This document shows positions 1 through 64,000 of a stretch of DNA of 64,000 nucleotides, one piece after another. Both the position numbers and the translations under genes were made by a program. This DNA is from an uncultured Gammaproteobacteria bacterium (GTDB lineage: Bacteria; Patescibacteriota; Microgenomatia; CAYXHB01; CAZYTL01). Position 1 is the stretch's first letter, and every line of letters starts with the position of its first letter. The notes beneath the pieces are model-generated. The model was given only the letters and a program-made list of their open reading frames with translations, had not been told where the DNA came from and ran no database searches. Location of the stretch: contig CAZYTL010000003.1 in NCBI GenBank assembly GCA_964650355.1, positions 65,750 through 129,749 of the forward strand, in the 5' to 3' direction.

Positions 1-291
1 TCATCAACATTAAAATCAACCCAGAAATCATTCTCCTTTTAGCCATATTCCCTCACCTAAAGTATAACATCCTTGCAATACCTCCTAAGTCCCGATTATC
101 AGTCACTGATCACCCACTACCGACAAGTGATAACCTACTACTTTCTTTCCTTCCCCATACCCTCAACCCAAATTACAGGTTATTTTTACACCCTTGAAAT
201 TTATCCCCATAACAAGTAGAATTAACAGAGTTGCCCTAAAAAACTTGCTAAAACTTAACTTTCTGTGTTATAATATAGGACATCTTGAACC

Positions 292-1260
292 TTGACCTCA
301 AGTAGTCTTGGTCAACAACCCAATAATTATTCAAAATCATTTTCTATGAATCCTGCAAAACCCGCTATCGACGACCAGCATATCACTCCTGATAGCCTTA
401 CCGGCCTCCGGGAGGCTCATGATGCGTTCATCGATTTTCTCAAACAACAGAATCGTTCCAGCTCTACCATTCTCGCCTACGGCAAAGACATCGAACAACT
501 CATCGAATACACCCTCCAAGAACACGGCATCGAACACGTTCACCTCGTCTCTCCCGAACACCTCAACGGCTACAAAGATCATCTCCACGAACAAAAATAC
601 ACCGCCAAATCCATCTCTCGCAAAATCAACTCCATCAAAAGCTTTTTCCGTTACCTTAAAAACCATGGCCACATCGACAGCAATCCCGCCGACCATGTCA
701 CCCATCCCAAATACGAGAACAAATCCCCTCGCATCTTAAGCAAAACCGAATACCGGGCCTTACGCGATGCCTGCCGCGACGATCTCCGTACTTCTGCCAT
801 TGTCGAGGTCCTCCTCCAGACCGGCATCCGCATCGGTGAACTGGCCAGCCTCAAACTCCCCAACGTTAAAAAGGACCATCTGATCATCGAACCTTATGAA
901 TCTCAACCCGGCCGTGAAGTCCCCCTCAACAAATCCGCCCAGGATGCCATTGCCAAATGGCTGGAAATCAGACCCAAAAACGCCAAAACCAACCACCTCT
1001 TCATCACCAAAAATGGCCGCCAACTCCTCATCCGCAATATCCGCACCTCCATTGACCGCTACTTCAAGCTCGCCGGCATTGATGACTGCACCGTCAACGA
1101 CCTCCGTCACACCTGGATCGCCCACCAACTCGCCCATGGTGCCTCCCTAGTTACCATTTCCAAAATCGCCGGCCACAAACGCCTCTCCACCACCGGCAAA
1201 TACCTCCAATTCATCAAAGACAAACTCCAAACCAGCAAAGTTAAATTGGAAGAACTATAA
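292..1260 (+). CDS. tyrosine site-specific recombinase (XerC/XerD / phage-integrase family)
   Basis: C-terminal catalytic signature R...HxxR...Y (RHTWIAHQLAHG...GHKRLSTTGKY). The ORF track start is TTG; an alternative ATG is at 346. A TATAAT-like box lies near 267-272. Confidence 0.8.
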   Translation: MTSSSLGQQPNNYSKSFSMNPAKPAIDDQHITPDSLTGLREAHDAFIDFLKQQNRSSSTILAYGKDIEQLIEYTLQEHGIEHVHLVSPEHLNGYKDHLHEQKYTAKSISRKINSIKSFFRYLKNHGHIDSNPADHVTHPKYENKSPRILSKTEYRALRDACRDDLRTSAIVEVLLQTGIRIGELASLKLPNVKKDHLIIEPYESQPGREVPLNKSAQDAIAKWLEIRPKNAKTNHLFITKNGRQLLIRNIRTSIDRYFKLAGIDDCTVNDLRHTWIAHQLAHGASLVTISKIAGHKRLSTTGKYLQFIKDKLQTSKVKLEEL

Positions 1261-1563
1261 ACTTAAATACCTCATGAGGGTAAGCGTAGAAGTTTATCCA
1301 GAAAACTCTCCGACGGGAAATAAAGTAACAAGAAACTGCACGGCAACAGACTGTGGCGTGCCTACCAAGCTATACCCGTGTGCATTACTCGACGAAACAC
1401 CATCTAATGGTGCCTGTAGACAACTAGATACTTCTCTTCGCCTTCCCCAAAAAACAATGCTTGTCTATTGCCAACTGGTAGATTAATAATCTACTTAAAA
1501 TCCCCTTTTACCTCAAAACAAGACACCTTAAAAACAGACTCCACTACTTGATTCGTAACCTTC

Positions 1564-2094
1564 CTATCTCCCCAACATCTCCTCTATCAACTTGGCCCCC
1601 AGTAAAGCATCCGCTGTTACTACATGTTTAGAAGACAGACACAAATATAACCCCTTGATAGGTATTTTTACCATCTTCTGAATTTCATCCTCGTCCCGAT
1701 CCGTCTCCCCTAACTCAAAATCCTTAACCAAATACAGTGATTTTTTACCTTTATGCCTCACGCCATTATAGAAAGACACTATCTTCTCATAATTTCCTCC
1801 TTTAATTCCTAATTCTTCTCTTAATTCACGCTTTAATTCATCAATTCCGCCACCACGATTTACCCTCGCACCTACAAACTGGGTCATTACCTTCTCAGGG
1901 CCCTGTCTCCACTCTTGCACCATCAGCACGCATCCGTCTTTTGTCACCGGAATCCCATAAACAATGTCCGGATAATCAACTACATCCCACTCCACTATCT
2001 TTCCATTTGGTAATCTAATTGTTTCTACACCAACCTTAACTTTCGGACCATCATACTTTGTCTTACGATCTAGAATCTGATATTCCTCACCCAT
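1564..2094 (-). CDS. Nudix-family hydrolase (imperfect Nudix box)
   Basis: RELREELGI matches the REUxEExGU part of the Nudix box. Size of 176 aa and beta-rich context fit the family. The Glu 7 residues upstream of the Arg is not conserved. Confidence 0.55.
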   Translation of the reverse strand: MGEEYQILDRKTKYDGPKVKVGVETIRLPNGKIVEWDVVDYPDIVYGIPVTKDGCVLMVQEWRQGPEKVMTQFVGARVNRGGGIDELKRELREELGIKGGNYEKIVSFYNGVRHKGKKSLYLVKDFELGETDRDEDEIQKMVKIPIKGLYLCLSSKHVVTADALLGAKLIEEMLGR

Positions 2095-2138
2095 AGGTTG
2101 TCATCTTAACCTCTCTTCTAACTTCTAAATTCTCACCT

Positions 2139-5599: not shown

Positions 5600-6016
5600 G
5601 TGAAAAGGTTAACTTTTCTGCTCGTATCCCTGCTCGCCGTAGGGCTGGCGGCGTTCCTGGGCCTCATCGCCCGACCCGCCGCCCCGGTCCAGGCTCAAGG
5701 GCCAGGATACACGTGCACAGGTCAAGGCTATGCCTACCAGTGCACGTATTCTGACGACGCCCGTGAGGCAATCAGGCAGCAACGCCGGGAAGAAATCCGC
5801 CAGGCCGCCGAAAACTTGGTAGATCCCAATACCTGGTGGGACGTCCAGACCCAAGGCGGCGGCACCTGGCAAGAGCAACAGGGCTGCGGCATCTTGGGAT
5901 GTAGAAACCCCAACTCCGGTCAGAGTTATACGTGTGGTGACACGTACAACACGTATACTTTCAAGCCGACCGGGGCCCAACACACCACCCGATCGACCAG
6001 CTGCAAGAAAAACTAG
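5600..6016 (+). CDS. small secreted cysteine-containing protein (signal peptide, 6 Cys), on a compositionally foreign island
   Basis: GTG start with a strong SD. N-terminal signal peptide MKRLTFLLVSLLAVGLAAFLGLIARPAAPVQAQG. The mature ~100 aa carries 6 Cys. Codon usage is G-rich, unlike neighbouring plus-strand genes. Confidence 0.55.
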   Translation: MKRLTFLLVSLLAVGLAAFLGLIARPAAPVQAQGPGYTCTGQGYAYQCTYSDDAREAIRQQRREEIRQAAENLVDPNTWWDVQTQGGGTWQEQQGCGILGCRNPNSGQSYTCGDTYNTYTFKPTGAQHTTRSTSCKKN

Positions 6017-9631: not shown

Positions 9632-10468
9632 CTAGCCTCCCCCACTCGATTTTGCTCCACTTACATTGGTTGACCATTCCAATACTCTCTCCAATGCCTT
9701 CTCCATCGCCATTTCCCAAAAAGTCACATGCTTCTCTCGTTCCTTATCCAGTAAACCTTTCACCTCTTTTAATGTCATCTCCCATTCCGGGATATAAAAC
9801 ACATGATCGAGTGGCGCTCCCATCACCATTTCCCCTCGTGGTTCCGTCAACATCACTCCCCGCATCCTCCCATCAACATACTCCACCTCTCCCTCTTCTC
9901 CCCTTGTTATCTGCTCCATCTGTCCCTTATCTGTTTCCATCTGCCTGCCCGCCGTAACTTTAGTGTTGGCGGGTGTGCTCTCCTCTTGCTTTGCAGGAGG
10001 AGGAAACAACAATCCCACCACACACCGCCACTCTGCTCCCCGCGCCTCCGGAGGTATCGCCTGCATCCGCTCCAAACAATACTCTACAATCTCCTCATCC
10101 CTCATCACCGTTACCCCGTCCCTCCATCTCCTCATCAGCGCTCCCGGCTCTCGTCCCAAAGCATCAATACTCAAACCTCTCTCTTCCGCCATAATTATAT
10201 AATCGTCATTCCGTAAAGCCGTTGCTTCGTTAGATTGTTCCTCTGTATTTTCCTCTCGCTGTTTTTCGACTCTTAAGCTCTTTAGCCTCACCTCATACAT
10301 TCTGCACCTCACTGCCACATTCGCCTCCAACGTCCTCCCCGTATCCGGCAAATCTATCTCTATCCCCAACTCCTTCGGCATCTCCACCTCCACCTTATAC
10401 TTACCAAACCTCTCCCTTACCTCCAACAACTTCTTCTTATCCTCTGTCACATAGAGAACCTTGACCAT
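9632..10468 (-). CDS. Ham1/RdgB-like non-canonical purine NTP pyrophosphatase paralog with a ~100-aa acidic insertion
   Basis: N-terminus LYVTEDKKKLLEVRERF and C-terminus TEPRGEMVMGAPLDHVFYIPEWEMTLKE...ALERV align with the clear Ham1 gene at 43932..44480. The central insert is low-complexity. Confidence 0.5.
   Translation of the reverse strand: MVKVLYVTEDKKKLLEVRERFGKYKVEVEMPKELGIEIDLPDTGRTLEANVAVRCRMYEVRLKSLRVEKQREENTEEQSNEATALRNDDYIIMAEERGLSIDALGREPGALMRRWRDGVTVMRDEEIVEYCLERMQAIPPEARGAEWRCVVGLLFPPPAKQEESTPANTKVTAGRQMETDKGQMEQITRGEEGEVEYVDGRMRGVMLTEPRGEMVMGAPLDHVFYIPEWEMTLKEVKGLLDKEREKHVTFWEMAMEKALERVLEWSTNVSGAKSSGGG
9986..9998. repeat. palindrome variant CTTGCTTTGCAGG, in-frame in the Ham1-like paralog (PPPAKQEE)
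   Basis: Degenerate copy sharing the GCTTTGCAG core. Confidence 0.55.
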
Positions 10469-10647: not shown

Positions 10648-11139
10648 CTATTTTCTTTCTTTTTTATAATTCCCCATCTCCGGTATCACATACCTCACCC
10701 CTCCCCGAGGATCATCCATATCGCCCTCATACCTGGGAATCACATGCCAGTGCAAATGATCCACTGTCCTGCCTGCAGCCCGGCCATCATTCACGCCATG
10801 ATTATAAGCATCCGGCTTAGTATTAATCCTCGGATGTTTCAACGCCTGCGTGCAGAACCAAATTGAATTATCATTAAAAGGATTTTCTAAAAAACGCTTG
10901 TATACTTTCCTTAAGTCCTCACTTAAAATACCCTCAATTACCCTGTCTATTGCATTTTTTAAATCCGTCCATTCCTCTCTCGACAACCCTTTCAAATCAG
11001 GCACATGTCGCACAGGGAAAACTAACGCATGACCTGGAGCCACCGGAAACGGCTCAAATATAGCTATCCATTTATCATCCCGCCAGATAACAATCTCATT
11101 CGGTTTCAAAACACAAAAAGGACAATTCCTTACCATCAT
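10648..11139 (-). CDS. HIT-family (histidine triad) nucleotide hydrolase/transferase
   Basis: HLHWHVIPR histidine triad motif. Confidence 0.8.
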   Translation of the reverse strand: MMVRNCPFCVLKPNEIVIWRDDKWIAIFEPFPVAPGHALVFPVRHVPDLKGLSREEWTDLKNAIDRVIEGILSEDLRKVYKRFLENPFNDNSIWFCTQALKHPRINTKPDAYNHGVNDGRAAGRTVDHLHWHVIPRYEGDMDDPRGGVRYVIPEMGNYKKERK

Positions 11140-11194
11140 GAATCTCTGTTAATATAAACTGACCCCATCATATCACCAATAGTAGACCCAAACC

Positions 11195-11662
11195 ATGAAT
11201 CAAACCCTTCTCCGCATCGCCCAAAAAGGCATCATCTTAAACCAAACCAAAACCAAAATCCTGGTTGTAAAATACTCCACCGCCAAATACACCTCACAAA
11301 AGGTCAAAAACAAACTCGGATTACCAGGCGGGCAAATAGACTTCAGCGAGACCCCTGACGAATCATTTGTCAGAGAAGTAAAAGAAGAAACCGGCATCAC
11401 GATCGTTCCTCTCCTTCCTTTCCATATCTATACTTGGACATACCAAACTGAAACCCACCTAAAACAAATCATCGCCGTCGCCAGGCTCGGAATTTATCAA
11501 TCTGGAAAATTAACTACTCACAAGCAAGAAAGGGAAACCACTATAGAGTTTTCCCAATGGCTACCCATTAAAGAACTTCAACCCAAAGGGTTTATCATTG
11601 ATGAACAGCCCGTCATCACCAAATTCCTTCAATACCAAAAGCAAAATCCCTTCTCTCTTTAA
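11195..11662 (+). CDS. Nudix hydrolase
   Basis: Canonical Nudix box GLPGGQIDFSETPDESFVREVKEETGI. Confidence 0.75.
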   Translation: MNQTLLRIAQKGIILNQTKTKILVVKYSTAKYTSQKVKNKLGLPGGQIDFSETPDESFVREVKEETGITIVPLLPFHIYTWTYQTETHLKQIIAVARLGIYQSGKLTTHKQERETTIEFSQWLPIKELQPKGFIIDEQPVITKFLQYQKQNPFSL

Positions 11663-11683
11663 TCATCCAGCCCACTAATAGCT

Positions 11684-12112
11684 TTACTTCGGTACTTTCC
11701 TCTTCCTCCTCTTCGTCACCACTTTCTCTAACTCTAGGCGCATTCTCTCCAATTCCTCATCCGTCATATCTTCTGCATCCATAAACCTGTTCCTCGCCGG
11801 CTTTATTGACCGAATCATCTCATCCAACTTCAAATGAATCGCCTTCGAATCCCGATTCTGCGTATTCTGAATCAAAAACACCATCAAAAAGGTCACAATC
11901 GTCGTCCCCGTATTAATCACCAATTGCCATGTATCCGAAAACCCAAACATCGGTCCCGTTAACAGCCACACCACAATCACCATCACCGCCAACATAAACA
12001 CCCGAGAAGTTCCCGCCAACTCCGCCACCTTCTTGGCAAACTTCCTAAACACATCATGCACCCCATTATGACTCTCCGTCGCCATCATTACTTCTAAATT
12101 ATGGTTTGTCAT
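11684..12112 (-). CDS. small membrane protein, low-affinity iron permease-like (Fet4/PF04120-like)
   Basis: Two TM helices and the conserved-looking WQLVINTGTTIVTFLMVFLIQNTQNRD...HLKLDEMI. The family assignment is from memory of bacterial Fet4-like proteins. Confidence 0.5.
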   Translation of the reverse strand: MTNHNLEVMMATESHNGVHDVFRKFAKKVAELAGTSRVFMLAVMVIVVWLLTGPMFGFSDTWQLVINTGTTIVTFLMVFLIQNTQNRDSKAIHLKLDEMIRSIKPARNRFMDAEDMTDEELERMRLELEKVVTKRRKRKVPK

Positions 12113-12124
12113 AAAACCAGTTTA

Positions 12125-17479: not shown

Positions 17480-17486
17480 CCTGTTC

Positions 17487-51426: not shown

Positions 51427-52245
51427 ATGGCCAAAAAAGATCCTCATCTCATCCAACGCTTCGAAGAACTTTATCCAGGTGCCGCTACTCCTAAAACCCC
51501 GACCAAACCCTTCACCACGGTCAGCCCGTTCCCTCGTAAGCCATACACTCCCGATTATCAAACCACCACTCCTCAGGAACCTGCTCCTCCCCAGCCTCTT
51601 CCTCCTCCCCCGCCTCTCCTCATCAACTATCAACCTGAATTCAAAGAAATCACTGACCAGGAAGCCCGAGACACCCTTGAATCCAACAACTTCACGGGTT
51701 TTGATCCAGTCTCCGTCCGCAAACTCCTTATCCGCAGCCCCCGAGTTCTCTTAACTGCCCTTCAACAAAAATGGTCCGATGTTCTCCTCTATCCTTGGCG
51801 TGCCGGTTGGACTGAATTCACTTCACAGGAACGCAACGCCATGCCCTGGCTATCCGCCGCCCTTGACTGGGGCATTTCATCAATAGAAATGTATGATAAC
51901 GCCCACGCTTTACCCCACGACCATCCCCTTAAAAACATTTGCCTTACCGCAGCCAAACAAATGCGCGAATGGGAACAAAACCACCCCCGATTCTCCGGTC
52001 TTGCGGCAGAGTCAAAACCCTTGGATCAACTCCTAGGCCAACCCATTCTCATCGGTTCTGACGGTTGGCCTTTGAACAAATTAGACGACGATGGTTTACC
52101 TCTGCCTGAAGAAGAACTCTATTCCAACACTTACCTCCTTTATCGTCGCTATCGTCCCCATATCTCCAAAAGACTCCAAAAACTCTTCCGCAAAATTGCC
52201 CGCGTCGCTCTGGAAAAAGGCCGCATCATATTAATCCAACCATAA
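51427..52245 (+). CDS. hypothetical protein with Pro-rich N-terminal region
   Basis: 272-aa ORF with no motif. Confidence 0.4.
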   Translation: MAKKDPHLIQRFEELYPGAATPKTPTKPFTTVSPFPRKPYTPDYQTTTPQEPAPPQPLPPPPPLLINYQPEFKEITDQEARDTLESNNFTGFDPVSVRKLLIRSPRVLLTALQQKWSDVLLYPWRAGWTEFTSQERNAMPWLSAALDWGISSIEMYDNAHALPHDHPLKNICLTAAKQMREWEQNHPRFSGLAAESKPLDQLLGQPILIGSDGWPLNKLDDDGLPLPEEELYSNTYLLYRRYRPHISKRLQKLFRKIARVALEKGRIILIQP

Positions 52246-52383
52246 CCAGACCGCCAAACCACCTAACCTCTCTTCTTTATCTGCTTATATCCGTATTACT
52301 GCTTTCGTCCCTCAATCCTGACTACCCCTACCCTTTTCTCCTCAAACTCGGTATCATGAAAATAGTAATTTCACTACTCTTCC

Positions 52384-55032
52384 ATGGCTTCAAAACGAGA
52401 TTCACAAACAACCAATCGCGGCAATCCTCTTGAAGGCTATCAAAATTATGACAAAACCCAATTCGCCCAAGATCTCCTCAATGGTAAAATCTCTCCTTAT
52501 AGCAAAGAAGCGCATCAATTCGCCCAACAAATATTAAACGACCAAGCTGCCAGTCCTGCGTCTCAAAAATTCGCTCAGGACTTACTCTCAGGAAAACTCA
52601 GCAGTCCACCTCTCAAATCCGCTCAAGACATTGCCAAGGAAGAGCCTCCCCCAAAAACCGGATCAAAAACCCTTGCCAAAGGTACGGCAATTGACACTTC
52701 CAAACTCGTTCCTCCCCCCACCGGTTTTCCTTCCTCACTTTTCCGGAAACCACCCACAGGCAAAGACATTCTTGTTGGCGACATTTCTATTGACCCCAAC
52801 CAGCCACTCCCGCCGGAAACCCAACGCCAACTCCTGGAGCGCTACCAAAACGATCTTCTCGCCGGCCAGGAAGCTCTGGCGCACCAGAAAAACATTCCTG
52901 CTCCGGTTGCCCACGACATCGTTGCCCTCGACACCGCTTTCGACCTGCTTAAAAAACGCGGTCACTGGGATCCAAAGCTTGAACAGCAACTCTATAAGGA
53001 CAACCAAACCGCCTTGGCACCTCTAAAACCCACAGCTCTCTCTCCAGAAGAACAACAACAATTAATGACCGACGCCGCCCACAATGTCCTCGAAGCCAGC
53101 AAAATTGCTGCCCAAGGCAAAACCATCCCCGAACCTCTCCGCTTGGAACTCGTTAAAAACGAAATCAAAATCTCTGATCTTCGGGCCCACGGAGGGCTAG
53201 ACCTAAATGTAGAAGAACAGGTTATTAAACAATTGGAAGTTGATCAAGCTCCACTCCTGACCACTCCTGCCATCGCCGCTCCATCACCACCCTCCGGAGC
53301 AGTCCAAGTTCCTCCTTCGCGTGAACAATTAGCAGCTCAACCCAAAATGGCCTTTGCTGTCCCCAAAGAAGTTCGTTCATTAATCCGCAAACCCTTCGAC
53401 GCTGCCCGCCATGAAGTTTCCAAACAGGCTCAGTCCGAAGTCAAGAAACTCGCCGAAAAACGCACTAAATCCGCTGCCCAAAAAGCCGTGGGCAAAGCCA
53501 CCAAAAGCACCCTCATGAAACTCGGCTCCAAGGCTTTAGCCATTGCCTCTGGTGTCGGCGCCGCCGTCCTCACCGCCGTTGGCATCACCCGCTTCCTTTG
53601 GAAACACAAAGAACTTGTCCTCGCCGCCCTCTCCTGGCTCATGCTCCAACTCGCCGCTCTCATCAACCTCATCATCGGCTCAGTCTTTGTCTTAACCGGA
53701 GCAGTCGTTGGTTTCGTCATCGCCGGACCGATCGGTGCCGTTGTCGGCGGCGCAGCCGGCTACGCCCTCCAATCCTGGCTCCGCACTTTGGGCCACGGCA
53801 GCACTGCCCAAGGTTTGGGCATCGCCACCAAACACTTAGCCGGCCAAACCACCGCTATAGTTGACGCCACCACCGGCCAAGTTGTTACCGTAGTCGACTC
53901 AGGCATCGGTGGTATTCTCTCCGGAGCCACTATCGTCCCAGCCAGCCTAGTTGCTCTCCCTGTCTTCGCTGCCCTAGGCACCGCCGGGTTCATGACCTTC
54001 TTTGTCATGATGCATATCCTCGTTGCCTTCACCGTTCCCAATCCTTTAGGCACCACCTTTCAATATCCCACCGGGCCTAATGTTCCTCCCGGCAGTGTCG
54101 TTCCCAATCCCGCCCAGCCTAACTCTCAACAACTACTAGACATCATGGAATCTGCTGCTAACAAAGCCTGTATTCCTTCTGCCCTCCTCAGCGCCATCAT
54201 GCAAACTGAAGGTGGCGGTTCTTTTAACTGGAGCGATGCTCAGGTTACCCGTTTCGGCGGATCTGTCCGTTGGTGGGAAAACGCGCTCCTCTCTAACGGC
54301 ACTCGCGGCAATTGCTACCTCACTCATGACGCTAGTTCTACCAGCGAATGCGGCCGAGGCCAAGGCTATTGCTTCGACGCCTGCACCGACTCCGGTCTTT
54401 GCTCAGGACAAGACGAATATGTCGCCGTTTATGGTTGGCCATCAGGAAACTGCTCGAGTCTATCCGGGCAACCCTGTAAAAGTGTTCCCTCCGCCCAAAT
54501 TTGTCCTCTCCGAAAAACTCGCCAATGCACCCTCTACGATGTCTACGGTATTACCCAATTTCGCCGCGTCACTTTCCACGGTGGTAGCTGTACAGATCGC
54601 GAAGGCCTCCAAGGTGAACCTCCCAGATATGGAAGCCCGCCCGCTTCCATCCAATGTCTCCAAGGTATCGCTTCCCGAATCGGGATCACCAACCATGGCC
54701 CCCCTAACCGTTGCCACGCTGGAGACGCTATCCAGGCCACCTCATTCTTTATCCAAGACAGGGCCCAAATCTCCTGTCCCTTTGATCCCACCCAATGGAA
54801 AATTGGTAATATCTGTGCCGTCGCCAGAAGCTATTGTGGCTCCTGCGGCACCGTTGCCGATCCAAATAGTTCCAACTATGTCACCGCCCAAATGTATCAA
54901 CAATACCCAGAACTCTATCCTTGTTATCCATATTATGGCAACCCTGGATCAAACCCCGAAGGTTGCACTTCAGGCAACGAGGGTTATTGCGATAAAATCT
55001 ACCGCCTCTACATCGGCAGCGGCAGCCCTTAA
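52384..55032 (+). CDS. large membrane protein: N-terminal ~22-aa FAQDLL repeats, central multi-TM/Gly-zipper segment, C-terminal ~330-aa Cys-rich extracellular domain (possible SLT-like region)
   Basis: Repeats QFAQDLLNGK / HQFAQQILND / QKFAQDLLSGK. TM cluster with GAVVGFVIAGPIGAVVGGAAGYAL. About 30 Cys in the last 330 aa. AIMQTEGG is only weakly SLT-like. Confidence 0.5.
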   Translation: MASKRDSQTTNRGNPLEGYQNYDKTQFAQDLLNGKISPYSKEAHQFAQQILNDQAASPASQKFAQDLLSGKLSSPPLKSAQDIAKEEPPPKTGSKTLAKGTAIDTSKLVPPPTGFPSSLFRKPPTGKDILVGDISIDPNQPLPPETQRQLLERYQNDLLAGQEALAHQKNIPAPVAHDIVALDTAFDLLKKRGHWDPKLEQQLYKDNQTALAPLKPTALSPEEQQQLMTDAAHNVLEASKIAAQGKTIPEPLRLELVKNEIKISDLRAHGGLDLNVEEQVIKQLEVDQAPLLTTPAIAAPSPPSGAVQVPPSREQLAAQPKMAFAVPKEVRSLIRKPFDAARHEVSKQAQSEVKKLAEKRTKSAAQKAVGKATKSTLMKLGSKALAIASGVGAAVLTAVGITRFLWKHKELVLAALSWLMLQLAALINLIIGSVFVLTGAVVGFVIAGPIGAVVGGAAGYALQSWLRTLGHGSTAQGLGIATKHLAGQTTAIVDATTGQVVTVVDSGIGGILSGATIVPASLVALPVFAALGTAGFMTFFVMMHILVAFTVPNPLGTTFQYPTGPNVPPGSVVPNPAQPNSQQLLDIMESAANKACIPSALLSAIMQTEGGGSFNWSDAQVTRFGGSVRWWENALLSNGTRGNCYLTHDASSTSECGRGQGYCFDACTDSGLCSGQDEYVAVYGWPSGNCSSLSGQPCKSVPSAQICPLRKTRQCTLYDVYGITQFRRVTFHGGSCTDREGLQGEPPRYGSPPASIQCLQGIASRIGITNHGPPNRCHAGDAIQATSFFIQDRAQISCPFDPTQWKIGNICAVARSYCGSCGTVADPNSSNYVTAQMYQQYPELYPCYPYYGNPGSNPEGCTSGNEGYCDKIYRLYIGSGSP

Positions 55033-55075
55033 CTCATCATAAAATCAAAAATCAATCCAACAATTTTCAGCCAAT

Positions 55076-55116
55076 GGCTGATCGGCGGTTCGACTGAGCT
55101 CACCGTCGAAGTCCCC
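55076..55116 (+). repeat. ~40-nt repeat GGCTGATCGGCGGTTCGACTGAGCTCACCGTCGAAGTCCCC (plus orientation); internal hairpin TTCGAC/GTCGAA
   Basis: Intergenic between 52384..55032 and 55146..55826. Confidence 0.65.
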
Positions 55117-55145
55117 CAACCGAAACAATTTAACCATTTATATCC

Positions 55146-55826
55146 ATGAAGATCCCTTCTCTCTCAATTCCCAAACTCCCTCCCCAAAAATGGCTCTTTA
55201 TTGCCATCTTAGCTTTTGTTGCCCTCATCATCACCCTCCTAGCCACTCGTCCCTTCAGCCTAAAAGTCACTCAAACCGATCCCCGTGATCAACAAACCGA
55301 AGTTCCTCTTAACTACCTCTTAACCGTCACTTTCAACCGCCCGGTTAATTCTCGGATCCAACCCTCCTTGCTCATTACTTTCGAGCCACCGGTCACCGGC
55401 CAAATATCTTTTAGTGCTGACCAGACTCAAGCTGTCTTTCAACCAAACGACTTTTATCAACCAGACACCCAGTATACCGTTACCGTCACCGGTCAAACCA
55501 TCAAAGATTTCACCTTCACCTTTCATACTCGTACTCAGATTGAACTTCCCCACTTTCCCCTGCTTAACCCCTCCTCTCCTCCAGCCGGTCCTCAAAGTCT
55601 TCAAGAGAAAAAACAACAACTCCTTAGCCACCTCCCTTACTATGGAAAAAACTTCTATATTCAATACACCTTGCTCGGAGACTTCATCTATGTCAACATC
55701 TTTACCGACCCGGTAGAGCAGGCCAAACAACAAGCCATCGCCTGGCTCAAAACTCAAGGCTTTGACGACCCTGAAAACCAACTCAACATCCGTTATACTT
55801 TTCCTAAAAGCTTTAATCCCAAATAA
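55146..55826 (+). CDS. membrane-anchored hypothetical protein (possible Ig-like beta domain)
   Basis: N-terminal TM, then a beta-rich T/V/Q segment. Confidence 0.4.
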   Translation: MKIPSLSIPKLPPQKWLFIAILAFVALIITLLATRPFSLKVTQTDPRDQQTEVPLNYLLTVTFNRPVNSRIQPSLLITFEPPVTGQISFSADQTQAVFQPNDFYQPDTQYTVTVTGQTIKDFTFTFHTRTQIELPHFPLLNPSSPPAGPQSLQEKKQQLLSHLPYYGKNFYIQYTLLGDFIYVNIFTDPVEQAKQQAIAWLKTQGFDDPENQLNIRYTFPKSFNPK

Positions 55827-55831
55827 TTTCT

Positions 55832-58800
55832 ATGTCAAACCTCCACTCCAACCAACTAATTACCAATTACTACTTACTAATTACATCTCTCTTTCTTATT
55901 CTACTTGCTACCTCCTACTTGCTACTTACTAATAAGGTCTCTGCCCAAGGAGTCGATTGTACTACCGCACCCACAGGCGCGTGCTGTAACGACTCATCAA
56001 TCTGTCAAGGTGAAACTTGCGCTTTCGTTCCCGGAGCACCTTGCGGCGATTCCTTTTGTCGAGACATCTACGATAATCCTCGTAACACCGGAGAATGCTG
56101 CGGAGGCTCAGATCTCTGTAATACCAGTGGAAACTGTGCTTTCGTTCCAGGTGCTTCATCGAAATGCTCAGGAGGTGGCGGTAACGTCACTCCATCTCCC
56201 GGCGTGACCCCCGACCCGGATCTCATCGACTACACTCCTCCCACCACCTACGGTGCCAATCAGCGCTGTGCAGGCAAAGAAACCAACGCCTTATCATCTC
56301 GTCCCGTCGAATGTGGAGTTTGCTACGACTACACACCCAAAGCCACTAACGCTTGTACCAATCCCAACATCACCGCCACCGCCACTCTGGAATACTCAGC
56401 AAACGAAGGCTTCACCTGCGGTACTGGTGAATGTAAATATGATAAAAGCGCCTGCACTGTCGAACAGGCACCTTTCTATAACTGCTGCACTGCCGTCACT
56501 GACCCCGAAGTCCGAGACAGAGCCGACATGCCTCCCCTTGGAGCAGATTGCGATCCTTGTGCTGACTGCGGCTACTGGGTAGAAGATAACTGCGGCGAAA
56601 ACGGTAACCCCCCTCAAATCCCGGAAACCCAACAGCTTCTGGTCGGTCCCAAACCTTGGAGCGGTATCTTCGCCGTTGACACCCGAGTACCCAGAGAAAC
56701 CATCCTTCCCTTTGCCGGCAATGACAACGAGGAATCCCTGGAGCGCTACATCGCCGACTACTTCGACGGCACCATCTACTATAAATCCGCCATCGATCCA
56801 GAATCTCACCCTCCCGACCTTTCAAACGATCCCTTCCCCATCTACAACCACCACGTCACCAGCTACTACGACATCCCTCCCTTCGATCCCCGATTCGTTT
56901 CCTATTCCGGGATTTTTTCCAAACTCGCTCCCCAAGCCTATCAGGACCGCCTTAAACAAGGCATCATCCATCGAGTCATCGAAGCCAACTATAACCAGAC
57001 CAATCAGCCAGTTCACAATATCACCATCAGATCCTGGCACGGGGACCAGGTCCAATTACTCAACTTCTTTGTCCTTCCCCAGCAACCTCCCCGTATGCGC
57101 CCTCTAGCTCCCAATGAAGGCGGCGGCGGCACCTGGGATCAATACGTTCAGTCCCTCACCGCCTGGAGTGTTCGCGACGGTGGCAAATGGTACCGCCTCT
57201 GGTCATACGTTCCTATCTCTTCCAGGGAAGACACTCCAGGCGAACTTGTTCCCATTCCCCAAACTCCAGCTTACGTCATTCCCTTAAATTCATCCATCGA
57301 AGGTCCGCCTCTCGCTGACAACCCATCTAATCAAATTCAACTAACAACTCCAGCCCTAAGCTGGTCCTCCACTGGCGGAAATAGCCAACCTGCCTCGCCT
57401 AGTCAAGGCGGACAGCTAACAGCCGATTCATCCCTCATCGCTTCCAGCACTGTCTATAGTCCTTCAACCGCATCATCAAACACATCTCCATCATCGCCCT
57501 CTTCCGCCCCTGATAATTCTGTCCTCCTAGCTCAAGTAGACCAACATGATCCTGACCCCACCTGTTTCGAAGACTACATCCCCTTCGGCGGAACTAAGGA
57601 GTTCGATGGATATTGCACCGCCATCGCCGAACATGGGGATTACAGTTGTTCAGATGGTACTACCTGTCACCCCGACCGACATCTATGTTATAACACCACC
57701 TGTAGCATCGAAGACCAATATGTGTACGAGGGTCACTGCAAATGCGAACCTAAGCAATGCCCCAACGGCACCGATGCAGAATGCAACGACAACGATCCTT
57801 GCACCACCGATACCTGCAACCAAACTACCAAAGTATGTAATGAACCAGAACCCATCATTGGTTGCGTCAAACCTCCGCCTTGGGTCAATCTCCAACAACC
57901 TCACTCTGCCCGTCTCTACCAAACCGAACGCCAAGTCCGCGCCCTCCTCAAGCCCGCCGACGCCCGCGGCGTCCCCACCGCCCAAACCACCACCGAATCA
58001 CCGTTAAATGCTTACGCTCCCACCACTACCTCCTCTACTTCTCCGGCATCTCAGCTTGCTTCTCTTCAACCTTTCTCTCCCGCTAATTCTCAACTAACAG
58101 CTAATTCGTCCCTCCTCGCCCAAGTCTCTCCCTCTCCAACCGCGTCACCGTCTCCAAACCCTAACGCCAGTCCCACTCCCAACCCCATAGTCGGTAGCAA
58201 TTATAGTAGTTGTGCTCCAGCCTTCCTAGATATCGTCCCCATCGCTACTCATGCCACAGGTAGCGGATACATCTGTGAATTCGCCGTCAACATCAGAGAA
58301 AACCAACCTTGCATCAGAGCCTTTGATACCGCCTGCTGTGAAAACGGAGACCAAGGCCTCCCCACTCCCGACGACTGCCCTATCCCCTGGTATCATTCAT
58401 GCAACTTTCCCAGGCTTAATGATATCCCTTGGGCATATCCTTTAGGAGATGCCGCCTGGCAAATTGATGTTACTACTCCCAGCGGATATCACGCTTATCC
58501 TGTACCAATCCACAAAATTGCCGTGGGCGGAGACTTGGCTTCCGGTATTGTCCACTGGGGAGAGATCGCGCTTGGCTACGGTGAGACCATGAACGCCCAA
58601 GGCTACTTCCTCAATGGGTTTAATTGGAATACCTATGAAATAGACAAACACAACTTTCCCGGATCAGCTTACTGGCAGTGGATCATTAGTGGTTTAGGAC
58701 CATCCGGCACCCTTACCTGTCAAGCCCCTCCCCAAGGAGGATGGGCTGATGCAGCAGCAGGAGAAGAATTCGACTGCAAATGTAACCGCACCGGCCCCAT

Positions 58801-61507
58801 GGCCATCCCTCCGCCTCCCCCTTACTGTGGCCCCACTCAACTTGGCACCCTTCCCACTTGTAGCGGCGACGTCCGCATCGGCCCGGGCGATCCCCTTTGC
58901 GGCCAAATGTCATATGAATTCCATGACAGTAATGACGGAGAATACTTCTGGAGCTCCAATCCTTATGACACCCAATACCGCTTCGACAGCCAAGAACCTC
59001 GACCCGGAGACTCCCGCGGCGAATATTCAGAATCCCGCTGCGGCGCTGACATGGCTTGTCTGGGATGCAACTGCATCGCCCCGGATGACATGATTGTCAC
59101 CATTTGGACCATCAACGAGGAAATTTGCCACGATGAGCAAACCGGAGCACCTTACACCTGCGAAAAAGAACACATCACTAGAACGTGTTGTGGTCCAAAC
59201 AGTGAACCTGACACCGATCCCAGTGACGTCAACACCTCAGTTTGCAAACCTAACCGTTGGCCGTCTTCTGATGCCTGTCCCGACGGTATGACTTGTATGC
59301 GCCAAAGACCTGGAACATCCGGAGAAGAAAACGTTGAATCCCTTTGCTGTATCAAACCCTATGGCTCGGATAGCCTAGCCACCGGCGGTCAGCTCTGTCA
59401 ACAAATGGAACCTTATCTCTTTCCCGATCGTGACCTTTTCATTACCGCTCAAAGAGAAATCCAACTCTCCGTTAAACTTCCCCACTGGGGCATTCTCTGG
59501 AACCATCTTGTTGAAAACAAAAAATCAACTTTCAAGCTCCTCACCCCCTACCGCGGAGCCTTAACCGCTCCTGATACGGTCCCCTGGTACGATTTCCATG
59601 ACGGCGAGGCTTCCGGAGAACTCAACATCATCAACCTCTCGGGTCCAGCCACCTTTAGCCCCAATACCGTCAACCTCTTCTTCCCTCATCTTGGCGGTAT
59701 CCAAGATGCCACCACTTTTGTTCGTGACTGCCTTACCAATCCCTATCGCTATGACATCCAAGGCAACGGCTGCAACTACTCTGACGTCACCGAACCCACT
59801 CGCGAGTGCATCGTCAACTTCCAAAAAATCTCCGTCATGGTTAACTCTGATCCCGGCGACCTCATGCCCTACATCAACGCCGCCCAGCCTCCCGTCGTCA
59901 CCCTCATGGACAACGGCCTCACCTACGCCTCAGCCATCAAAGCCGCTTCTCCCGCAACTCGCATCGTCGGCAGAGTCTATGATCCCTATTTCGCCCAACT
60001 ACCAGACCCACTTCCGTCTACTGGTGAAATTCCCGCCCTTGTCCAGCGTTGGGTCTCCTCTCTCGGAGGGCATATCAACAACGATCAAGTAAATTACTGG
60101 CAAGGTTTCAACGAACCCATCGTCGACACCGCAGATAAAATGGCCTGGCTCGCTCAATTTGAAAAAGCTCGTGTCGAATGGTTAGCCTCTCAAGGCAAAC
60201 AAGCTTGCATCGGCAACTTCGGCACCGGTAACCCCAATCCTAACTTCTGGGGAGATTTTGAACCAGCATTCACAGCTATCGAGCAACACGGCGGAGTTGT
60301 CTGTCTCCATGAATATGGTGGAGTCAACACCGGTGACAACATGGAGATCGGCAGTGGCCATCTTGGCCGATTCCAAGATATGTATAATTATCTCGGGAGC
60401 CGCAACATTCAAACCGTTATTTCTGAAACTGGCATGGACCGCAGTGGCAACGCCGCCTCCGATGGCTGGAAAGCCAGAGTGACTGCCGATGTCTTCCTCG
60501 AAGGCCTCACCGGCTATGACCAATTTCTCATGGGCGAACCCCGCATCATCGGCGCCACCCTCTTCATCCTCGGTCACCCTGGTTGGCCCAGTTTCGAAAT
60601 TTCCCCCGAAATCATCCAGGCCATGACCGAAGGCGCTCAACAAAATCTTGATCCCGGAGCCATCCAATGCGTCTCTACTGGCTCTCCTCAACCCCCGGGA
60701 AATCCCGGCACACCCGGCACCACCGCAGACTTAAACGGCATCGGCATTTTTACCAGTGGCGGTGATGCCGCTACCACCTGGATCAATACCACCAACCCAG
60801 ACATGATCCTCCTCCTCAACAGCTTCTCTTACGCCAACGAGATCCCCTCTTCCATCCTGGTTGTGGGCCGCACTACCGAACTACCAGATGGCGGAACTGA
60901 TCTCGGCCGTCTCGACACTACCCTCCGGAACTACATGCAAGCCAACCCTGCTGTCGACGTCTGGCAGGGTTATAACGAAATCCTCTATCACTCCAGTGGC
61001 AACTATGACCTTCTCACCCAACACGACCGCCGCATGATCCAACTCGGCAGCCAATTAGGCAAAAAGGTCTGCATCGGCAATTTCAAAGAAGGCTGGCCCC
61101 TGGACCCCGGCAGTTCAGCCTTCAGCACCTACGCCAGCGCCATCATGCAGGAAATCAGTACTCAAAGCATGTCCGGCAACGTCTACCTCTGTGTCCATGA
61201 GCATGAGAAGGATAACTGGTCCTTTGGGGCCAACGATAGCTATATTGGCCGATTCACCCAACTCACCAGTAACGGCCTCGATCTTCCTGTCCTCGTCACT
61301 GTCTCCGGCTATGACTCCGAAGCTGGTCCCACCATCGACCACGGCGCGGGCTGGCAAGATAGCGGAATAGATGCTGCTACCTATCGCGGCTGGCTTAGAG
61401 ATTACTATCAGGCAGCCCGCGGTGCTGGAGCCCAAGGCATGGCCGTCTTCCAGGTCGGTCTGGGAGGTGAATGGAATGGCTTTGATGCTCTCCCCCTCCT
61501 CCAGTAA
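55832..61507 (+). CDS. giant (1891 aa) secreted/surface protein: N-terminal Cys-rich repeats, S/T/P linkers, two tandem clan GH-A (GH5-like) domains
   Basis: Signal/TM anchor. Repeated CxxxxxxCC...CAFVPGA modules. WQGFNEP (acid/base NEP) and VISETGMD (nucleophile ETG). A degenerate second copy has WQGYNEI. Confidence 0.6.
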   Translation: MSNLHSNQLITNYYLLITSLFLILLATSYLLLTNKVSAQGVDCTTAPTGACCNDSSICQGETCAFVPGAPCGDSFCRDIYDNPRNTGECCGGSDLCNTSGNCAFVPGASSKCSGGGGNVTPSPGVTPDPDLIDYTPPTTYGANQRCAGKETNALSSRPVECGVCYDYTPKATNACTNPNITATATLEYSANEGFTCGTGECKYDKSACTVEQAPFYNCCTAVTDPEVRDRADMPPLGADCDPCADCGYWVEDNCGENGNPPQIPETQQLLVGPKPWSGIFAVDTRVPRETILPFAGNDNEESLERYIADYFDGTIYYKSAIDPESHPPDLSNDPFPIYNHHVTSYYDIPPFDPRFVSYSGIFSKLAPQAYQDRLKQGIIHRVIEANYNQTNQPVHNITIRSWHGDQVQLLNFFVLPQQPPRMRPLAPNEGGGGTWDQYVQSLTAWSVRDGGKWYRLWSYVPISSREDTPGELVPIPQTPAYVIPLNSSIEGPPLADNPSNQIQLTTPALSWSSTGGNSQPASPSQGGQLTADSSLIASSTVYSPSTASSNTSPSSPSSAPDNSVLLAQVDQHDPDPTCFEDYIPFGGTKEFDGYCTAIAEHGDYSCSDGTTCHPDRHLCYNTTCSIEDQYVYEGHCKCEPKQCPNGTDAECNDNDPCTTDTCNQTTKVCNEPEPIIGCVKPPPWVNLQQPHSARLYQTERQVRALLKPADARGVPTAQTTTESPLNAYAPTTTSSTSPASQLASLQPFSPANSQLTANSSLLAQVSPSPTASPSPNPNASPTPNPIVGSNYSSCAPAFLDIVPIATHATGSGYICEFAVNIRENQPCIRAFDTACCENGDQGLPTPDDCPIPWYHSCNFPRLNDIPWAYPLGDAAWQIDVTTPSGYHAYPVPIHKIAVGGDLASGIVHWGEIALGYGETMNAQGYFLNGFNWNTYEIDKHNFPGSAYWQWIISGLGPSGTLTCQAPPQGGWADAAAGEEFDCKCNRTGPMAIPPPPPYCGPTQLGTLPTCSGDVRIGPGDPLCGQMSYEFHDSNDGEYFWSSNPYDTQYRFDSQEPRPGDSRGEYSESRCGADMACLGCNCIAPDDMIVTIWTINEEICHDEQTGAPYTCEKEHITRTCCGPNSEPDTDPSDVNTSVCKPNRWPSSDACPDGMTCMRQRPGTSGEENVESLCCIKPYGSDSLATGGQLCQQMEPYLFPDRDLFITAQREIQLSVKLPHWGILWNHLVENKKSTFKLLTPYRGALTAPDTVPWYDFHDGEASGELNIINLSGPATFSPNTVNLFFPHLGGIQDATTFVRDCLTNPYRYDIQGNGCNYSDVTEPTRECIVNFQKISVMVNSDPGDLMPYINAAQPPVVTLMDNGLTYASAIKAASPATRIVGRVYDPYFAQLPDPLPSTGEIPALVQRWVSSLGGHINNDQVNYWQGFNEPIVDTADKMAWLAQFEKARVEWLASQGKQACIGNFGTGNPNPNFWGDFEPAFTAIEQHGGVVCLHEYGGVNTGDNMEIGSGHLGRFQDMYNYLGSRNIQTVISETGMDRSGNAASDGWKARVTADVFLEGLTGYDQFLMGEPRIIGATLFILGHPGWPSFEISPEIIQAMTEGAQQNLDPGAIQCVSTGSPQPPGNPGTPGTTADLNGIGIFTSGGDAATTWINTTNPDMILLLNSFSYANEIPSSILVVGRTTELPDGGTDLGRLDTTLRNYMQANPAVDVWQGYNEILYHSSGNYDLLTQHDRRMIQLGSQLGKKVCIGNFKEGWPLDPGSSAFSTYASAIMQEISTQSMSGNVYLCVHEHEKDNWSFGANDSYIGRFTQLTSNGLDLPVLVTVSGYDSEAGPTIDHGAGWQDSGIDAATYRGWLRDYYQAARGAGAQGMAVFQVGLGGEWNGFDALPLLQ
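55853..55884. repeat. CCAACTAATTACCAATTACTACTTACTAATTAC repeat at the 5' end of the giant surface-protein gene, in a different reading frame (NQLITNYYLLIT)
   Basis: Seen directly. Confidence 0.7.
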
Positions 61508-61591: not shown

Positions 61592-62953
61592 TCAAAACAA
61601 CCCTAACTGTTCCTCTCTTTCTTTACTTTCTTTCTCTAAATCTCCAATCTTGATCACTCCATACACCCCATCATACCCCGGCTTAATCTCCACCTCACCT
61701 TTGCGCATCTTCTCAATCGCCAGCGCTAACTTCTTAAAACCTGCTTCTTGAATCTCTTCTATTGGCATCCATAACAAAATCTCAAAATCACCCCCCAGCT
61801 TCTGCGTCACTAAATTATACATCTGCTGGACCGACCTGCTAGTAATACTCTTCACCTCCAACAACTCTGCCATGGTCCACAACAACGGAATCAAATACTT
61901 CACCTCTTTTCCTCTCATCCGACCCTGCCCTTGAGCATCGCCCTTTACTTCTTCCTGAATCAGCTTTTCTGCTTCTTCCTTACTCCTGTCTGCCAAATCA
62001 ATCACCCTTGATAGCACCCCCACCGTCAATGGCCTTCCGCACTTTGGACATCTGCCTTCCAGCTTCTTCGTCTCTTCCGGTTCACAGCTAAAATCACAAC
62101 TCCTATGCCCGTCTGCATGATACATCCCCTCTTGCGGATAAAACTCAATCGTTCCCACATATCGCTCATCTCCCACTTTTATCGCCTCAATAATATCACT
62201 ATAACTTAACTCACAATCAAACAAATTTGCCTCCCTACCGATATTCTTAGCCGAATGCGCGTCCGACCCAGACAACAGCGTCCGGCTGTCCAAATCGCTC
62301 ACCATCCTACACATCATCGGGTCTGCAGATAACCCGGTTTCCACTGCATAAATATATTTAGCATAGTCCCCAAACGCCTCTTCTACCGAATCAAACCCCG
62401 ACTTTGATCCGAACATCGCAAAATGTGGCGTCCAAATATGCGCCGGCACAAATAAACAATCTTCAGAGGCTTCCAGCATCACCTTTAACAACTCCTCGCT
62501 GTCCAAACCCAAAATCGGCCTTCCGTCCGACTTCAAATTTCCCACCTCTTGTAATTTAGCATTAATCTTAGCCGCCACCTCCAAACTCGGAGCCACTATC
62601 TGATTATGCAACCGCCTCACCTTCCCGTACCGCTTATAGATATTGCTAATCTCAACTGACAACGCAAACCTTATCTCTCGCTCTCTACACTTCATTGGCA
62701 AACTCTTATCCATCTCCTTTGCCAATTCCTCTTTCAATTTATATAACACACCTGAACCCTCCGTGGCCGTAACCTCATCTGCCACCAGTTTCGTCCGCAG
62801 CTCCTCAAACCACACCGGATGCGTAAAATCTCCTGTCCCAATCACATCCAACCCTTTTAACTTCCCCCACTGATACAAATTCTCCAAAGTCAAATCCTTA
62901 CTTGTCGCTCTGGCAAAATGCGAATGCACATGAAAATCAACAATCAATTTCAT
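61592..62953 (-). CDS. Endonuclease Q (EndoQ)-like PHP-domain nuclease with C-terminal Zn-finger
   Basis: DFHVHSHFARATS, GLDVIGTGDFTHPVW, PAHIWTPHF, ETGLSADP, SGSDAHSAKNIGREANLF and CPKCGRPLTVG align with archaeal EndoQ motifs. Confidence 0.7.
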   Translation of the reverse strand: MKLIVDFHVHSHFARATSKDLTLENLYQWGKLKGLDVIGTGDFTHPVWFEELRTKLVADEVTATEGSGVLYKLKEELAKEMDKSLPMKCREREIRFALSVEISNIYKRYGKVRRLHNQIVAPSLEVAAKINAKLQEVGNLKSDGRPILGLDSEELLKVMLEASEDCLFVPAHIWTPHFAMFGSKSGFDSVEEAFGDYAKYIYAVETGLSADPMMCRMVSDLDSRTLLSGSDAHSAKNIGREANLFDCELSYSDIIEAIKVGDERYVGTIEFYPQEGMYHADGHRSCDFSCEPEETKKLEGRCPKCGRPLTVGVLSRVIDLADRSKEEAEKLIQEEVKGDAQGQGRMRGKEVKYLIPLLWTMAELLEVKSITSRSVQQMYNLVTQKLGGDFEILLWMPIEEIQEAGFKKLALAIEKMRKGEVEIKPGYDGVYGVIKIGDLEKESKEREEQLGLF

Positions 62954-63002
62954 AGATCAGAAATTCAACATACTAAGATATTCTTATCTCTTTCTTTTTG
63001 CA

Positions 63003-63980
63003 TTACTTCACCCGATAAATCCTTGTCTCGCCGCTCTCAAACACCACCTCCCCCAATTGCTTAAAGTTTTCCTCCCGCAGTCTCGGATACTTCTCCCTCT
63101 CCTTATCCCCCACAAACACATATTCAACGCGGTACTTACTCAAAATCTTCCTTACCTCCTCTAAATCTACCGACGTATATACCTTCTCTACCTCAGCCTG
63201 CCTGGCTCCCGGCTCATCAAAACTTCCCCGCCATAACCATTCGTGCACCAACCAACCCTGAATCGTCGGATATCCAGTATAAGCCGACACCCGGTCAAAC
63301 TCCGTATAACTGTCACCCACCGCCTCCAACACCACGGGCTGCCTGTCCGCCATAGCTTTAGCAGAGATGAATCCCTCCAATTCCCTCAACCACTCAATCC
63401 CCGCAAAATCATCAGCATACTTATTCTTTAACCAGGCTTCACCATCCAATCCCCTGTAAACCTTCAATCCATTGTAATAATCCCGAATCGCAAACCGCGG
63501 ATAACTCCCGACTGCCACCAATCCTAGTACTACCAACATTATCCATCCATATTTCAAATACTTATTGTTCCACACTACCAACGGTGCACTCACCAACCGT
63601 ACAATCGTATACGCTCCTGCAAACGCAAACAAAATCCACGATTGATATACCAACTTAAACATCGTATTCGCTCGATGGTAATCCGCGATATAAATATCCT
63701 TCACGTACACCAACTCTGGAATCAAAATCAGCAACCACCCCACCCCGTACCAACCCAACATTACATAGTCCACCAACAAAGCCTTCAATTCCCTACTCCC
63801 CTTATCAACTCTCCTCACTCCAATCACAAACATTAACAAACTCACAAACAGAAACAAATCCCATCCCCACAACACCAACAGCTTAGAAATTTCTGAATTC
63901 GCTTCCACCGGCAATATCCCTTTGGCAATTTGCTCAAAGTGCATCTGAAAAGGCAAACTCACCATTATGGTCAATCCCAC
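63003..63980 (-). CDS. polytopic membrane protein with C-terminal soluble domain (possible glycosyltransferase-associated, uncertain)
   Basis: GTG start with SD AGGAGGG. About 5 TM helices followed by a ~150-aa hydrophilic domain. Confidence 0.4.
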   Translation of the reverse strand: MGLTIMVSLPFQMHFEQIAKGILPVEANSEISKLLVLWGWDLFLFVSLLMFVIGVRRVDKGSRELKALLVDYVMLGWYGVGWLLILIPELVYVKDIYIADYHRANTMFKLVYQSWILFAFAGAYTIVRLVSAPLVVWNNKYLKYGWIMLVVLGLVAVGSYPRFAIRDYYNGLKVYRGLDGEAWLKNKYADDFAGIEWLRELEGFISAKAMADRQPVVLEAVGDSYTEFDRVSAYTGYPTIQGWLVHEWLWRGSFDEPGARQAEVEKVYTSVDLEEVRKILSKYRVEYVFVGDKEREKYPRLREENFKQLGEVVFESGETRIYRVK

Positions 63981-64000
63981 TAATATCCCTCCTATTAACC

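Follow-up and report, generated by a model that had tools for sequence, protein, structure and literature searches.

Strong strand asymmetry of guanine and cytosine, independent of gene orientation, in a 64-kb stretch of a Microgenomates contig

The DNA analysed here is a stretch of 64,000 nucleotides (called the window below) from contig CAZYTL010000003.1, which was deposited as an uncultured Gammaproteobacteria bacterium and is placed by GTDB among the Microgenomatia (Patescibacteriota). The feature in question is the large excess of C over G on its + strand. Long open reading frames (ORFs; greedy set) cover about 88% of the window, and most of them have strong or clear Pfam matches. Overall, the gene content is typical of the Candidate Phyla Radiation (CPR)/Patescibacteria. 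The window encodes two PBP1a-type proteins, one of which is listed with other features in Table 1. It also encodes a DUF5667 protein, NrdR, SufS, TIM, RpiB and Rpe, together with a DUF8128/TrwB-type coupling ATPase (T4CP) and a XerC-like recombinase. The nearest named matches, which indicate similarity only, belong to Woese-, Pace-, Collier-, Beckwith-, Ames- and Shapirobacteria at 60-70% identity, and the closest synteny was found with a contig whose ribonucleotide reductase (RNR) is named Beckwithbacteria by NCBI.

Over the whole window the + strand consists of 26.4% A, 33.4% C, 14.2% G and 26.0% T, which corresponds to a GC content of 47.6%, a GC skew of -0.402 and a bulk AT skew of +0.007. 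If G and C were equally frequent, the binomial standard deviation (SD) of the window skew would be 0.0057; the observed deviation amounts to about 70 SD. When the sequence was divided into 2-kb windows, every GC skew lay between -0.22 and -0.64. In 1-kb windows the medians were 13.5% G, 33.4% C and a skew of -0.42, and 60 of the 64 windows were beyond -0.2. At 300 nt the skew rose above -0.2 in 9.9% of windows and above 0 in 0.7%. The cumulative GC skew dropped monotonically from position 1 to 64000, with no change of sign anywhere within the 64 kb. An initial annotation of this DNA, made from the letters alone, had described a + strand with over 30% C, roughly 10% G and a skew near -0.5. The figure for C and the strongly negative skew hold, while the shortage of G was overstated and so, to some extent, was the skew, which is nearer to -0.4. 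Values of |skew| below 0.2 over most of the window, named in that annotation as contrary evidence, were not found, since only four of the 64 1-kb windows fell below this level. It had also been claimed that the skew is far stronger than that ordinarily associated with replication. The comparison with 51 actinobacterial loci, which served as the controls for ordinary skew, bears this out, as their values ran from -0.006 to a highest value of +0.117.

The bias was found to be independent of gene orientation, as first proposed. Expressed for the + strand, the GC skew was -0.32 in + strand genes, -0.48 in - strand genes and -0.43 in the spacers. Since its sign is the same in both gene orientations and in the spacers, the GC skew is not tied to transcription. 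Gene direction is, by contrast, reflected in the bulk AT skew, which is +0.08 in + strand genes and -0.055 in - strand genes. Read on the coding strand, the GC skew of + strand genes was -0.02, -0.29 and -0.69 at codon positions 1, 2 and 3, and -0.81 at four-fold degenerate sites (bootstrap interval, with genes resampled, -0.83 to -0.78). For - strand genes the corresponding values were +0.52, +0.06, +0.72 and +0.75 (0.69 to 0.79). The strand effect was largest at position 3 (0.70) and smaller at positions 1 (0.27) and 2 (0.18). A comparison of codon positions had been suggested in the initial annotation, and the order obtained (3 > 1 > 2) is that expected of mutation pressure. This order, along with the maximum at four-fold sites, therefore indicates that mutation pressure, filtered by selection, reshapes the proteome. 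Gene by gene, the four-fold skew in + strand terms lies between -0.7 and -0.9 in most genes of both orientations.

The consequences for the encoded proteins are considerable. At four-fold sites the codon choice is opposite on the two strands, NNC making up 54% in + strand genes and NNG 51% in - strand genes. Proteins of the + strand are enriched in P (2.2-fold), in T, Q and H (1.9-fold each) and also in C, N and S, and those of the - strand are enriched 1.4- to 2.7-fold in M (2.7-fold), E (2.4-fold), V (1.9-fold) and also R, K and G. The imprint proposed earlier, with S, P, T, L and Q on one side and G, E, K, V and R on the other, can thus be confirmed with the exception of leucine, which is equal in the two sets (1.03-fold).

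Four-fold sites showed the same + strand composition in both gene orientations (C 0.52, T 0.26, A 0.15, G 0.065). At two-fold sites, C/(C+T) on the + strand was 0.60-0.64 and G/(G+A) was 0.17-0.20, an approximately 7-fold difference in odds, which runs in the direction expected of excess C-to-T and/or A-to-G change on the G-rich strand. The purine share of the G-rich strand at four-fold sites was 75-81% in the window and 60-82% in four related loci (L089, L096, L097 and L100; see below). As transitions leave the purine:pyrimidine ratio unchanged and the G-rich strand is purine-rich, an asymmetry of transversions would be needed as well. In a toy equilibrium model, asymmetry of transitions alone could not reproduce the composition of the four-fold sites, the misfit being 0.06-0.14 in each of the four lineages. 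To solve the model exactly, transversions away from G on the C-rich strand had to be made 5-10 fold faster and transitions 2-23 fold faster. What the model only shows, under its assumptions, is that simple cytosine deamination would not be enough for the four-fold sites. A feature conserved throughout the clade is the scarcity of C on the G-rich strand, where it is the least frequent of the four bases (0.04-0.10). Polarising the mutation spectrum by means of close relatives was tried and dropped, because no relative in the protein searches exceeded 69% identity for the RNR or 82% for T4CP, a distance at which synonymous sites are saturated.

Related loci were compared by way of their T4CP, RNR and valyl-tRNA synthetase (ValRS) genes. 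Among the loci whose T4CP is 79-82% identical to that of the window, the GC skew was 0.30 (L096), 0.33 (L097) and 0.40 (L098). L100, with a T4CP of 67% identity, had a skew of 0.375, and L099, at 68%, had one of 0.10; beyond these five loci the T4CP matches reach an identity plateau of 60-64%. L099 and L100 thus stand at a similar distance from the window and share synteny, yet differ about four-fold in skew, and they form a natural pair for finding the genetic cause. In L089 (JGI 3300038679), whose RNR is 69% identical, |skew| is about 0.45 on both of its arms. T4CP and RNR lie on the G-rich strand in all skewed relatives, as they do in the window. More generally, 66 of the 77 genes (86%) in L089, L096, L097 and L100 are on the G-rich strand, and 35 of the 53 in the window. 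The RNR region is also syntenic in L092 (named Collierbacteria) and L095 (named Beckwithbacteria), where the skew is only 0.06. The ValRS relatives (59-70% identity) had skews mostly within ±0.1, a few loci showing -0.32, -0.23 or +0.2, and no synteny around ValRS was common to the window and 28 Patescibacteria loci. Scanning metagenomes with the RNR recovered no more than six loci, of which the best was 73% identical. Taken together, these results indicate that the bias is a trait of the clade containing the window and that its strength changes sharply between sister lineages.

A change in the sign of the skew was found in one relative, L089. There the skew changes from -0.45 in the first 8.1 kb to +0.5 in the sequence beyond 9.6 kb. 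The left arm is syntenic with the right end of the window (Endonuclease Q (EndoQ), DUF2298), and the right arm carries the RNR. The negative arm contains a + strand gene, so that the bias is independent of orientation in this locus too. Between the arms lies a low-skew stretch of 1.3 kb bounded by 36-nt inverted repeats (8206-8241 and 9535-9570). The element so delimited (8206-9570) contains two ORFs, one with a faint integrase-core match, and from these features it looks like an insertion sequence (IS). Contigs of two other samples end exactly at this element. A cluster of DnaA boxes was absent from L089 (10 matches where 5.7 were expected, and none of them close to the switch). The switch was therefore rejected as evidence of a replication origin, given the lack of such a cluster and its position on an IS-like element. 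Three readings of the switch are possible: a genuine inversion, an assembly join, or an IS that happens to lie at an origin or terminus.

Low-skew stretches of the window fell into two groups: constrained parts of large genes, and genes of deviant composition with weak four-fold skew (Table 1). The first group includes ValRS and the 882-aa and 1891-aa ORFs, whose four-fold skew is as extreme as elsewhere. They were accordingly rejected as foreign DNA, and the low total skew at 49-61.5 kb is attributed to amino-acid constraint. The second group comprises the two low-skew genes of high GC content, the gene without assigned function and the block around the AAA_14/DUF4143 ATPase, which, judged from their composition, are probably recent imports not yet reshaped by the bias; the two GC-rich genes probably came from an organism of ordinary composition. 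If these genes are indeed imports that have not yet been reshaped, the mutational process would be continuing. Structured RNA genes were also considered for the low-skew islands and rejected, as an Rfam scan at E values up to 1 gave no credible match and the islands contain protein genes with signal-peptide-like N-termini. An ATPase of the AAA_14/DUF4143 type occurs in the low-skew tail of L096 as well, where its neighbour is a primase-like (AEP-TOTE) gene; the pairing is suggestive of a mobile cassette.

Table 1. Features of the window, with coordinates from its first letter and the observations made on each
Feature	Position	Strand	Observations
Small-protein gene	5600..6016	+	low skew; 59% GC; signal-peptide-like N-terminus (by eye); no Pfam match
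Divergent Ham1-family protein (Ham1-a)	9632..10468	-	Pfam E 1e-19; below NCBIfam cut-offs
HIT hydrolase, Nudix (11195-11662), iron permease, Ppx/GppA, second Nudix (13695-14105)	10648..14105		
Deoxynucleoside triphosphate (dNTP) interconversion cluster	14264..19064		DCD-fold protein, unknown ORF, ThyA, dCTP deaminase, DHFR, dCMP deaminase, second dCTP deaminase
Gene without assigned function	14908..15831	+	39% GC; four-fold skew only -0.35
Two tandem class II ribonucleotide reductases	19068..24371	-	Pfam; four-fold skew -0.77 to -0.79 (+ strand terms)
Low-skew gene	26353..27186	-	63% GC; hydrophobic, signal-peptide-like N-terminus; Pro/Thr-rich tandem repeats; no Pfam match
PBP1a-type gene	27474..30404	+	Pfam; four-fold sites 56% C, 6% G; four-fold skew -0.82
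AAA_14/DUF4143 ATPase and unknown ORFs	30412..34444	-	four-fold skew -0.18 to -0.52
Divergent Ham1-family protein (Ham1-b)	38780..39436	-	below NCBIfam cut-offs
Canonical RdgB/Ham1 XTP/dITP diphosphatase	43932..44480	-	TIGR00042, 161 bits against a cut-off of 145
ValRS, 882-aa ORF, 1891-aa ORF	49066..61507	+	total skew about -0.25; four-fold skew -0.78 to -0.84
Endonuclease Q homologue	61592..62953	-	PDB 5zb8/7k30, E 2e-43; 60%-identical copy in L089

Several further observations concern genes of this neighbourhood. Class II RNR paralogues occur two to three in tandem with NrdR (19068-24890 in the window; also in L089, L092 and L095), one with an ATP-cone and one with a TSCPD domain. The RNR match in L082 extends over 3530 nt for 828 residues and probably contains an intein. 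A block consisting of Ham1, a VWA protein, a cobalamin adenosyltransferase, a small ORF, the DUF8128/TrwB ATPase and the XerC-like recombinase is conserved in the window (292-10468) and in L096, L099 and L100. Since this block is conserved in relatives, the integrase at 292-1260 was rejected as the marker of a mobile island. Homologues of the coupling ATPase numbered 5115 at E<=1e-30, with the identity plateau at 60-64%, and it appears to be a core gene of the Microgenomates. The sole tRNA in the window is a tRNA-Ile with the anticodon UAU (2324-2396, - strand; ARAGORN, Rfam 74.7 bits), of which a 79%-identical copy adjoins T4CP in L097. In most bacteria AUA is read by a lysidine-modified CAU anticodon. 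Finally, a number of Patescibacteria metagenome-assembled genomes (MAGs) titled 'uncultured Gammaproteobacteria' or 'Pseudomonadales' (L002, L003, L008, L009, L013, L021 and others) look like labelling errors. Their ValRS sequences are 54-70% identical to that of the window, and named Microgenomates matches stand at similar identity.

A disparity of this kind has been published before. In 2020 Kadnikov et al. described Ca. Chazhemtobacterium aquaticus Ch65, in whose closed genome (801,504 bp, 44.8% GC) one strand carries 29.8% C and 15.0% G along its entire length (skew -0.33), without A/T disparity or a link to gene distribution (PMC7143001). The same paper gives weaker disparities for two further genomes, one of Collierbacteria (-0.14) and one of Beckwithbacteria (-0.16), and none in family PJMF01. 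A survey of 2024 covered 17,873 complete RefSeq genomes, among which only Ch65 stood out as an obvious exception (PMC11514846). Neither a codon-position breakdown nor an inferred mutation spectrum was found in the sections of these two papers that were consulted, and our literature search found no later published work on the mechanism of the Ch65-type disparity. Searching the literature for the sample accessions likewise gave nothing. The phenomenon is thus already published; what the window adds is one more case, somewhat more extreme, from another lineage of the Microgenomates.

The reading that we prefer, with a probability of roughly 60%, is that the window belongs to a Microgenomates (CPR/Patescibacteria) chromosome under very strong, strand-specific mutation pressure tied to replication. 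This pressure would hit one kind of base pair, namely G on the C-rich strand or, equivalently, C on the G-rich strand. In the toy model the targeted pair would be lost several-fold to about 20-fold faster than its mirror pair. The loss would proceed by transitions (G to A, which is C to T on the other strand) plus transversions. The asymmetry would be coupled to replication, with the G-rich (-) strand carrying the leading-strand sequence, forks crossing the window from right to left and the whole 64 kb lying in one replication arm. As the genes favour the G-rich strand, this arrangement agrees with the general rule for the leading strand, which is usually the G-rich one.

A number of points weigh against this reading. 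The window contains no origin, terminus or switch, and the link to replication is one that we infer. The sole switch found in relatives (L089, about 8.1-9.6 kb) coincides with the IS-like element. In Ch65 the C-rich strand carries the rRNA genes and a slight majority of the genes overall, a poor fit to a G-rich leading strand in that genome (PMC7143001). The sign of the AT skew at four-fold sites varies, the G-rich strand having more A than T in the window and L089 and more T than A in L100, and a classical keto skew, with the G-rich strand also T-rich, was found only in L100, not in the window or L089. The toy model fits as many parameters as there are data points, and it presupposes neutral sites at equilibrium whose baseline transversion rates are equal. 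Moreover, four-fold sites may not be purely neutral, given that the spacers are 58% pyrimidine on the + strand at 41% GC and the four-fold sites about 80% pyrimidine at about 58% GC.

It is conceivable, although we think it unlikely, that the strands have permanent roles because the whole chromosome is copied one way, by unidirectional theta replication or by a strand-displacement or rolling-circle-like mode, so that no arm of opposite skew exists. Such one-way replication was proposed by Kadnikov et al., who found that the cumulative skew declines without a break along the closed genome of Ch65 and along those of the Collierbacteria and Beckwithbacteria members (PMC7143001). The lack of a sign change in the 64-kb window and in 14-22 kb of L096, L097 and L100 is compatible with it. 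However, only about 144 kb of strongly skewed sequence has been seen. At two switches per genome of about 1 Mb, about 0.3 switches would be expected in it, and the lack of switches is therefore uninformative. L089 has two arms of opposite polarity, though the junction between them is suspect, and the mode of replication cannot be read from composition alone. A further reading, which we regard as doubtful, is that the bias is not an exaggerated cytosine-deamination skew. It would instead be the trace of a strand-specific loss of guanine, including a 5-10 fold excess of transversions and coupled to unconventional copying (for instance one-way or strand-displacement replication), which would have arisen in a subset of the Microgenomates and would switch in strength between sisters (0.375 in L100 vs 0.10 in L099).

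The initial annotation had hinted at a peculiar mutational or nucleotide-pool regime. On such a reading, unusual dNTP ratios or contaminated pools, produced or controlled by the many Ham1, Nudix, Dcd and dCMP-deaminase enzymes, would lead to misincorporation preferentially on one strand. The inventory itself is confirmed by profile and PDB matches: three Ham1 proteins, three Nudix proteins (one of them a marginal match), a HIT protein, three proteins of the dCTP-deaminase fold, a dCMP deaminase and EndoQ. The NCBI equivalog cut-off was passed by one of the three Ham1 proteins and the dCTP-deaminase cut-off by two of the three Dcd-fold proteins. These sanitation and deamination genes are not only present but clustered, and the transversions called for by the model would fit oxidised-guanine chemistry. 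Damage of that kind is policed by Nudix enzymes of the MutT type. Against the proposed link from these genes to the bias, the part of the cluster that was compared (NrdR, two to three RNRs, Nudix and Maf) also occurs in the corresponding neighbourhood of L092 and L095, whose skew is about 0.06. In addition, Ham1-a belongs to the conserved Ham1-VWA-cobalamin adenosyltransferase-T4CP block, and an imbalance of the pool alone would be strand-symmetric unless coupled to a strand-specific step. CPR bacteria are described as generally without nucleotide synthesis pathways (PMC7143001). On this evidence it seems improbable that the nucleotide pool is the cause.

A coding-strand component does exist for A and T, as the bulk AT skew follows gene direction. 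Mutation coupled to transcription, or selection acting on codons, on amino acids or on the composition of the mRNA, is nevertheless extremely improbable as the source of a GC skew that keeps its sign and nearly its size in both orientations and in spacers, shows no flip with gene orientation in the window, and is accompanied by opposite codon choice in the two gene sets, which selection on translation cannot explain. Nothing was found in support of a chimeric, synthetic or chemically converted (bisulfite-like) sequence, and such an origin is scarcely credible; the initial annotation had already held that the skew is no sequencing artefact. The ORFs are intact and have Pfam matches, and two Logan contigs from a separate assembly of SRR14802573 (a run possibly the same as that of the source MAG) are 100% identical to the window along 6350 and 4932 bases. 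Relatives' assemblies from other samples and centres (JGI, Logan) show the bias as well, and conversion, which predicts a matching AT skew and broken ORFs, is contradicted by the absence of both.

Practically all cellular chromosomes obey Chargaff's second parity rule, and the window shows that Ch65 is not an isolated exception to it. Because the skew differs sharply between sister lineages, its cause can be approached by comparative genomics of repair and replication genes. A single cell whose two half-proteomes differ in amino-acid make-up and have opposite codon preferences offers a natural experiment on the limits of mutation pressure. In practice, weak bias marks probable recent imports.

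Among known systems, the Ch65-type disparity (order UBA1400) resembles the window in that both belong to small CPR genomes of the Microgenomates with a large excess of C over G, no bulk AT skew and no relation to gene orientation. The local skew of the window is stronger (-0.40 vs -0.33, -0.14 and -0.16) and its GC content higher (47.6% vs 44.8%), and the genes of its clade favour the G-rich strand, whereas the rRNA genes of Ch65 and a slight majority of its genes are found on the C-rich strand. Ordinary replication-associated GC skew (Lobry 1996; Grigoriev 1998; PMC5291525) is likewise strongest at third positions, is independent of transcription and has most genes on the G-rich strand. The skew of the window is, however, several times larger (control loci <=0.12), and the usual partner of GC skew, an excess of T over A on the G-rich strand, is absent from the window in bulk and reversed at its four-fold sites. 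The purine asymmetry of the Firmicutes type (leading strand rich in G+A, PolC, gene-strand bias; PMC5291525) is also similar, in that the G-rich strand of the window is A-rich as well (75-81% purine at four-fold sites) and its relatives have a strong gene-strand bias (86%). It differs from the present case in size, which is far greater here, and in that the G-rich strand of L100 has more T than A. The heavy/light strand asymmetry of vertebrate mitochondria shares with the window one very G-poor strand and a deamination-type imbalance of transitions (about 7-fold odds). The G-poor strand of vertebrate mitochondrial DNA is rich in A+C, whereas that of the window is rich in C+T at four-fold sites, which needs an asymmetry of transversions.

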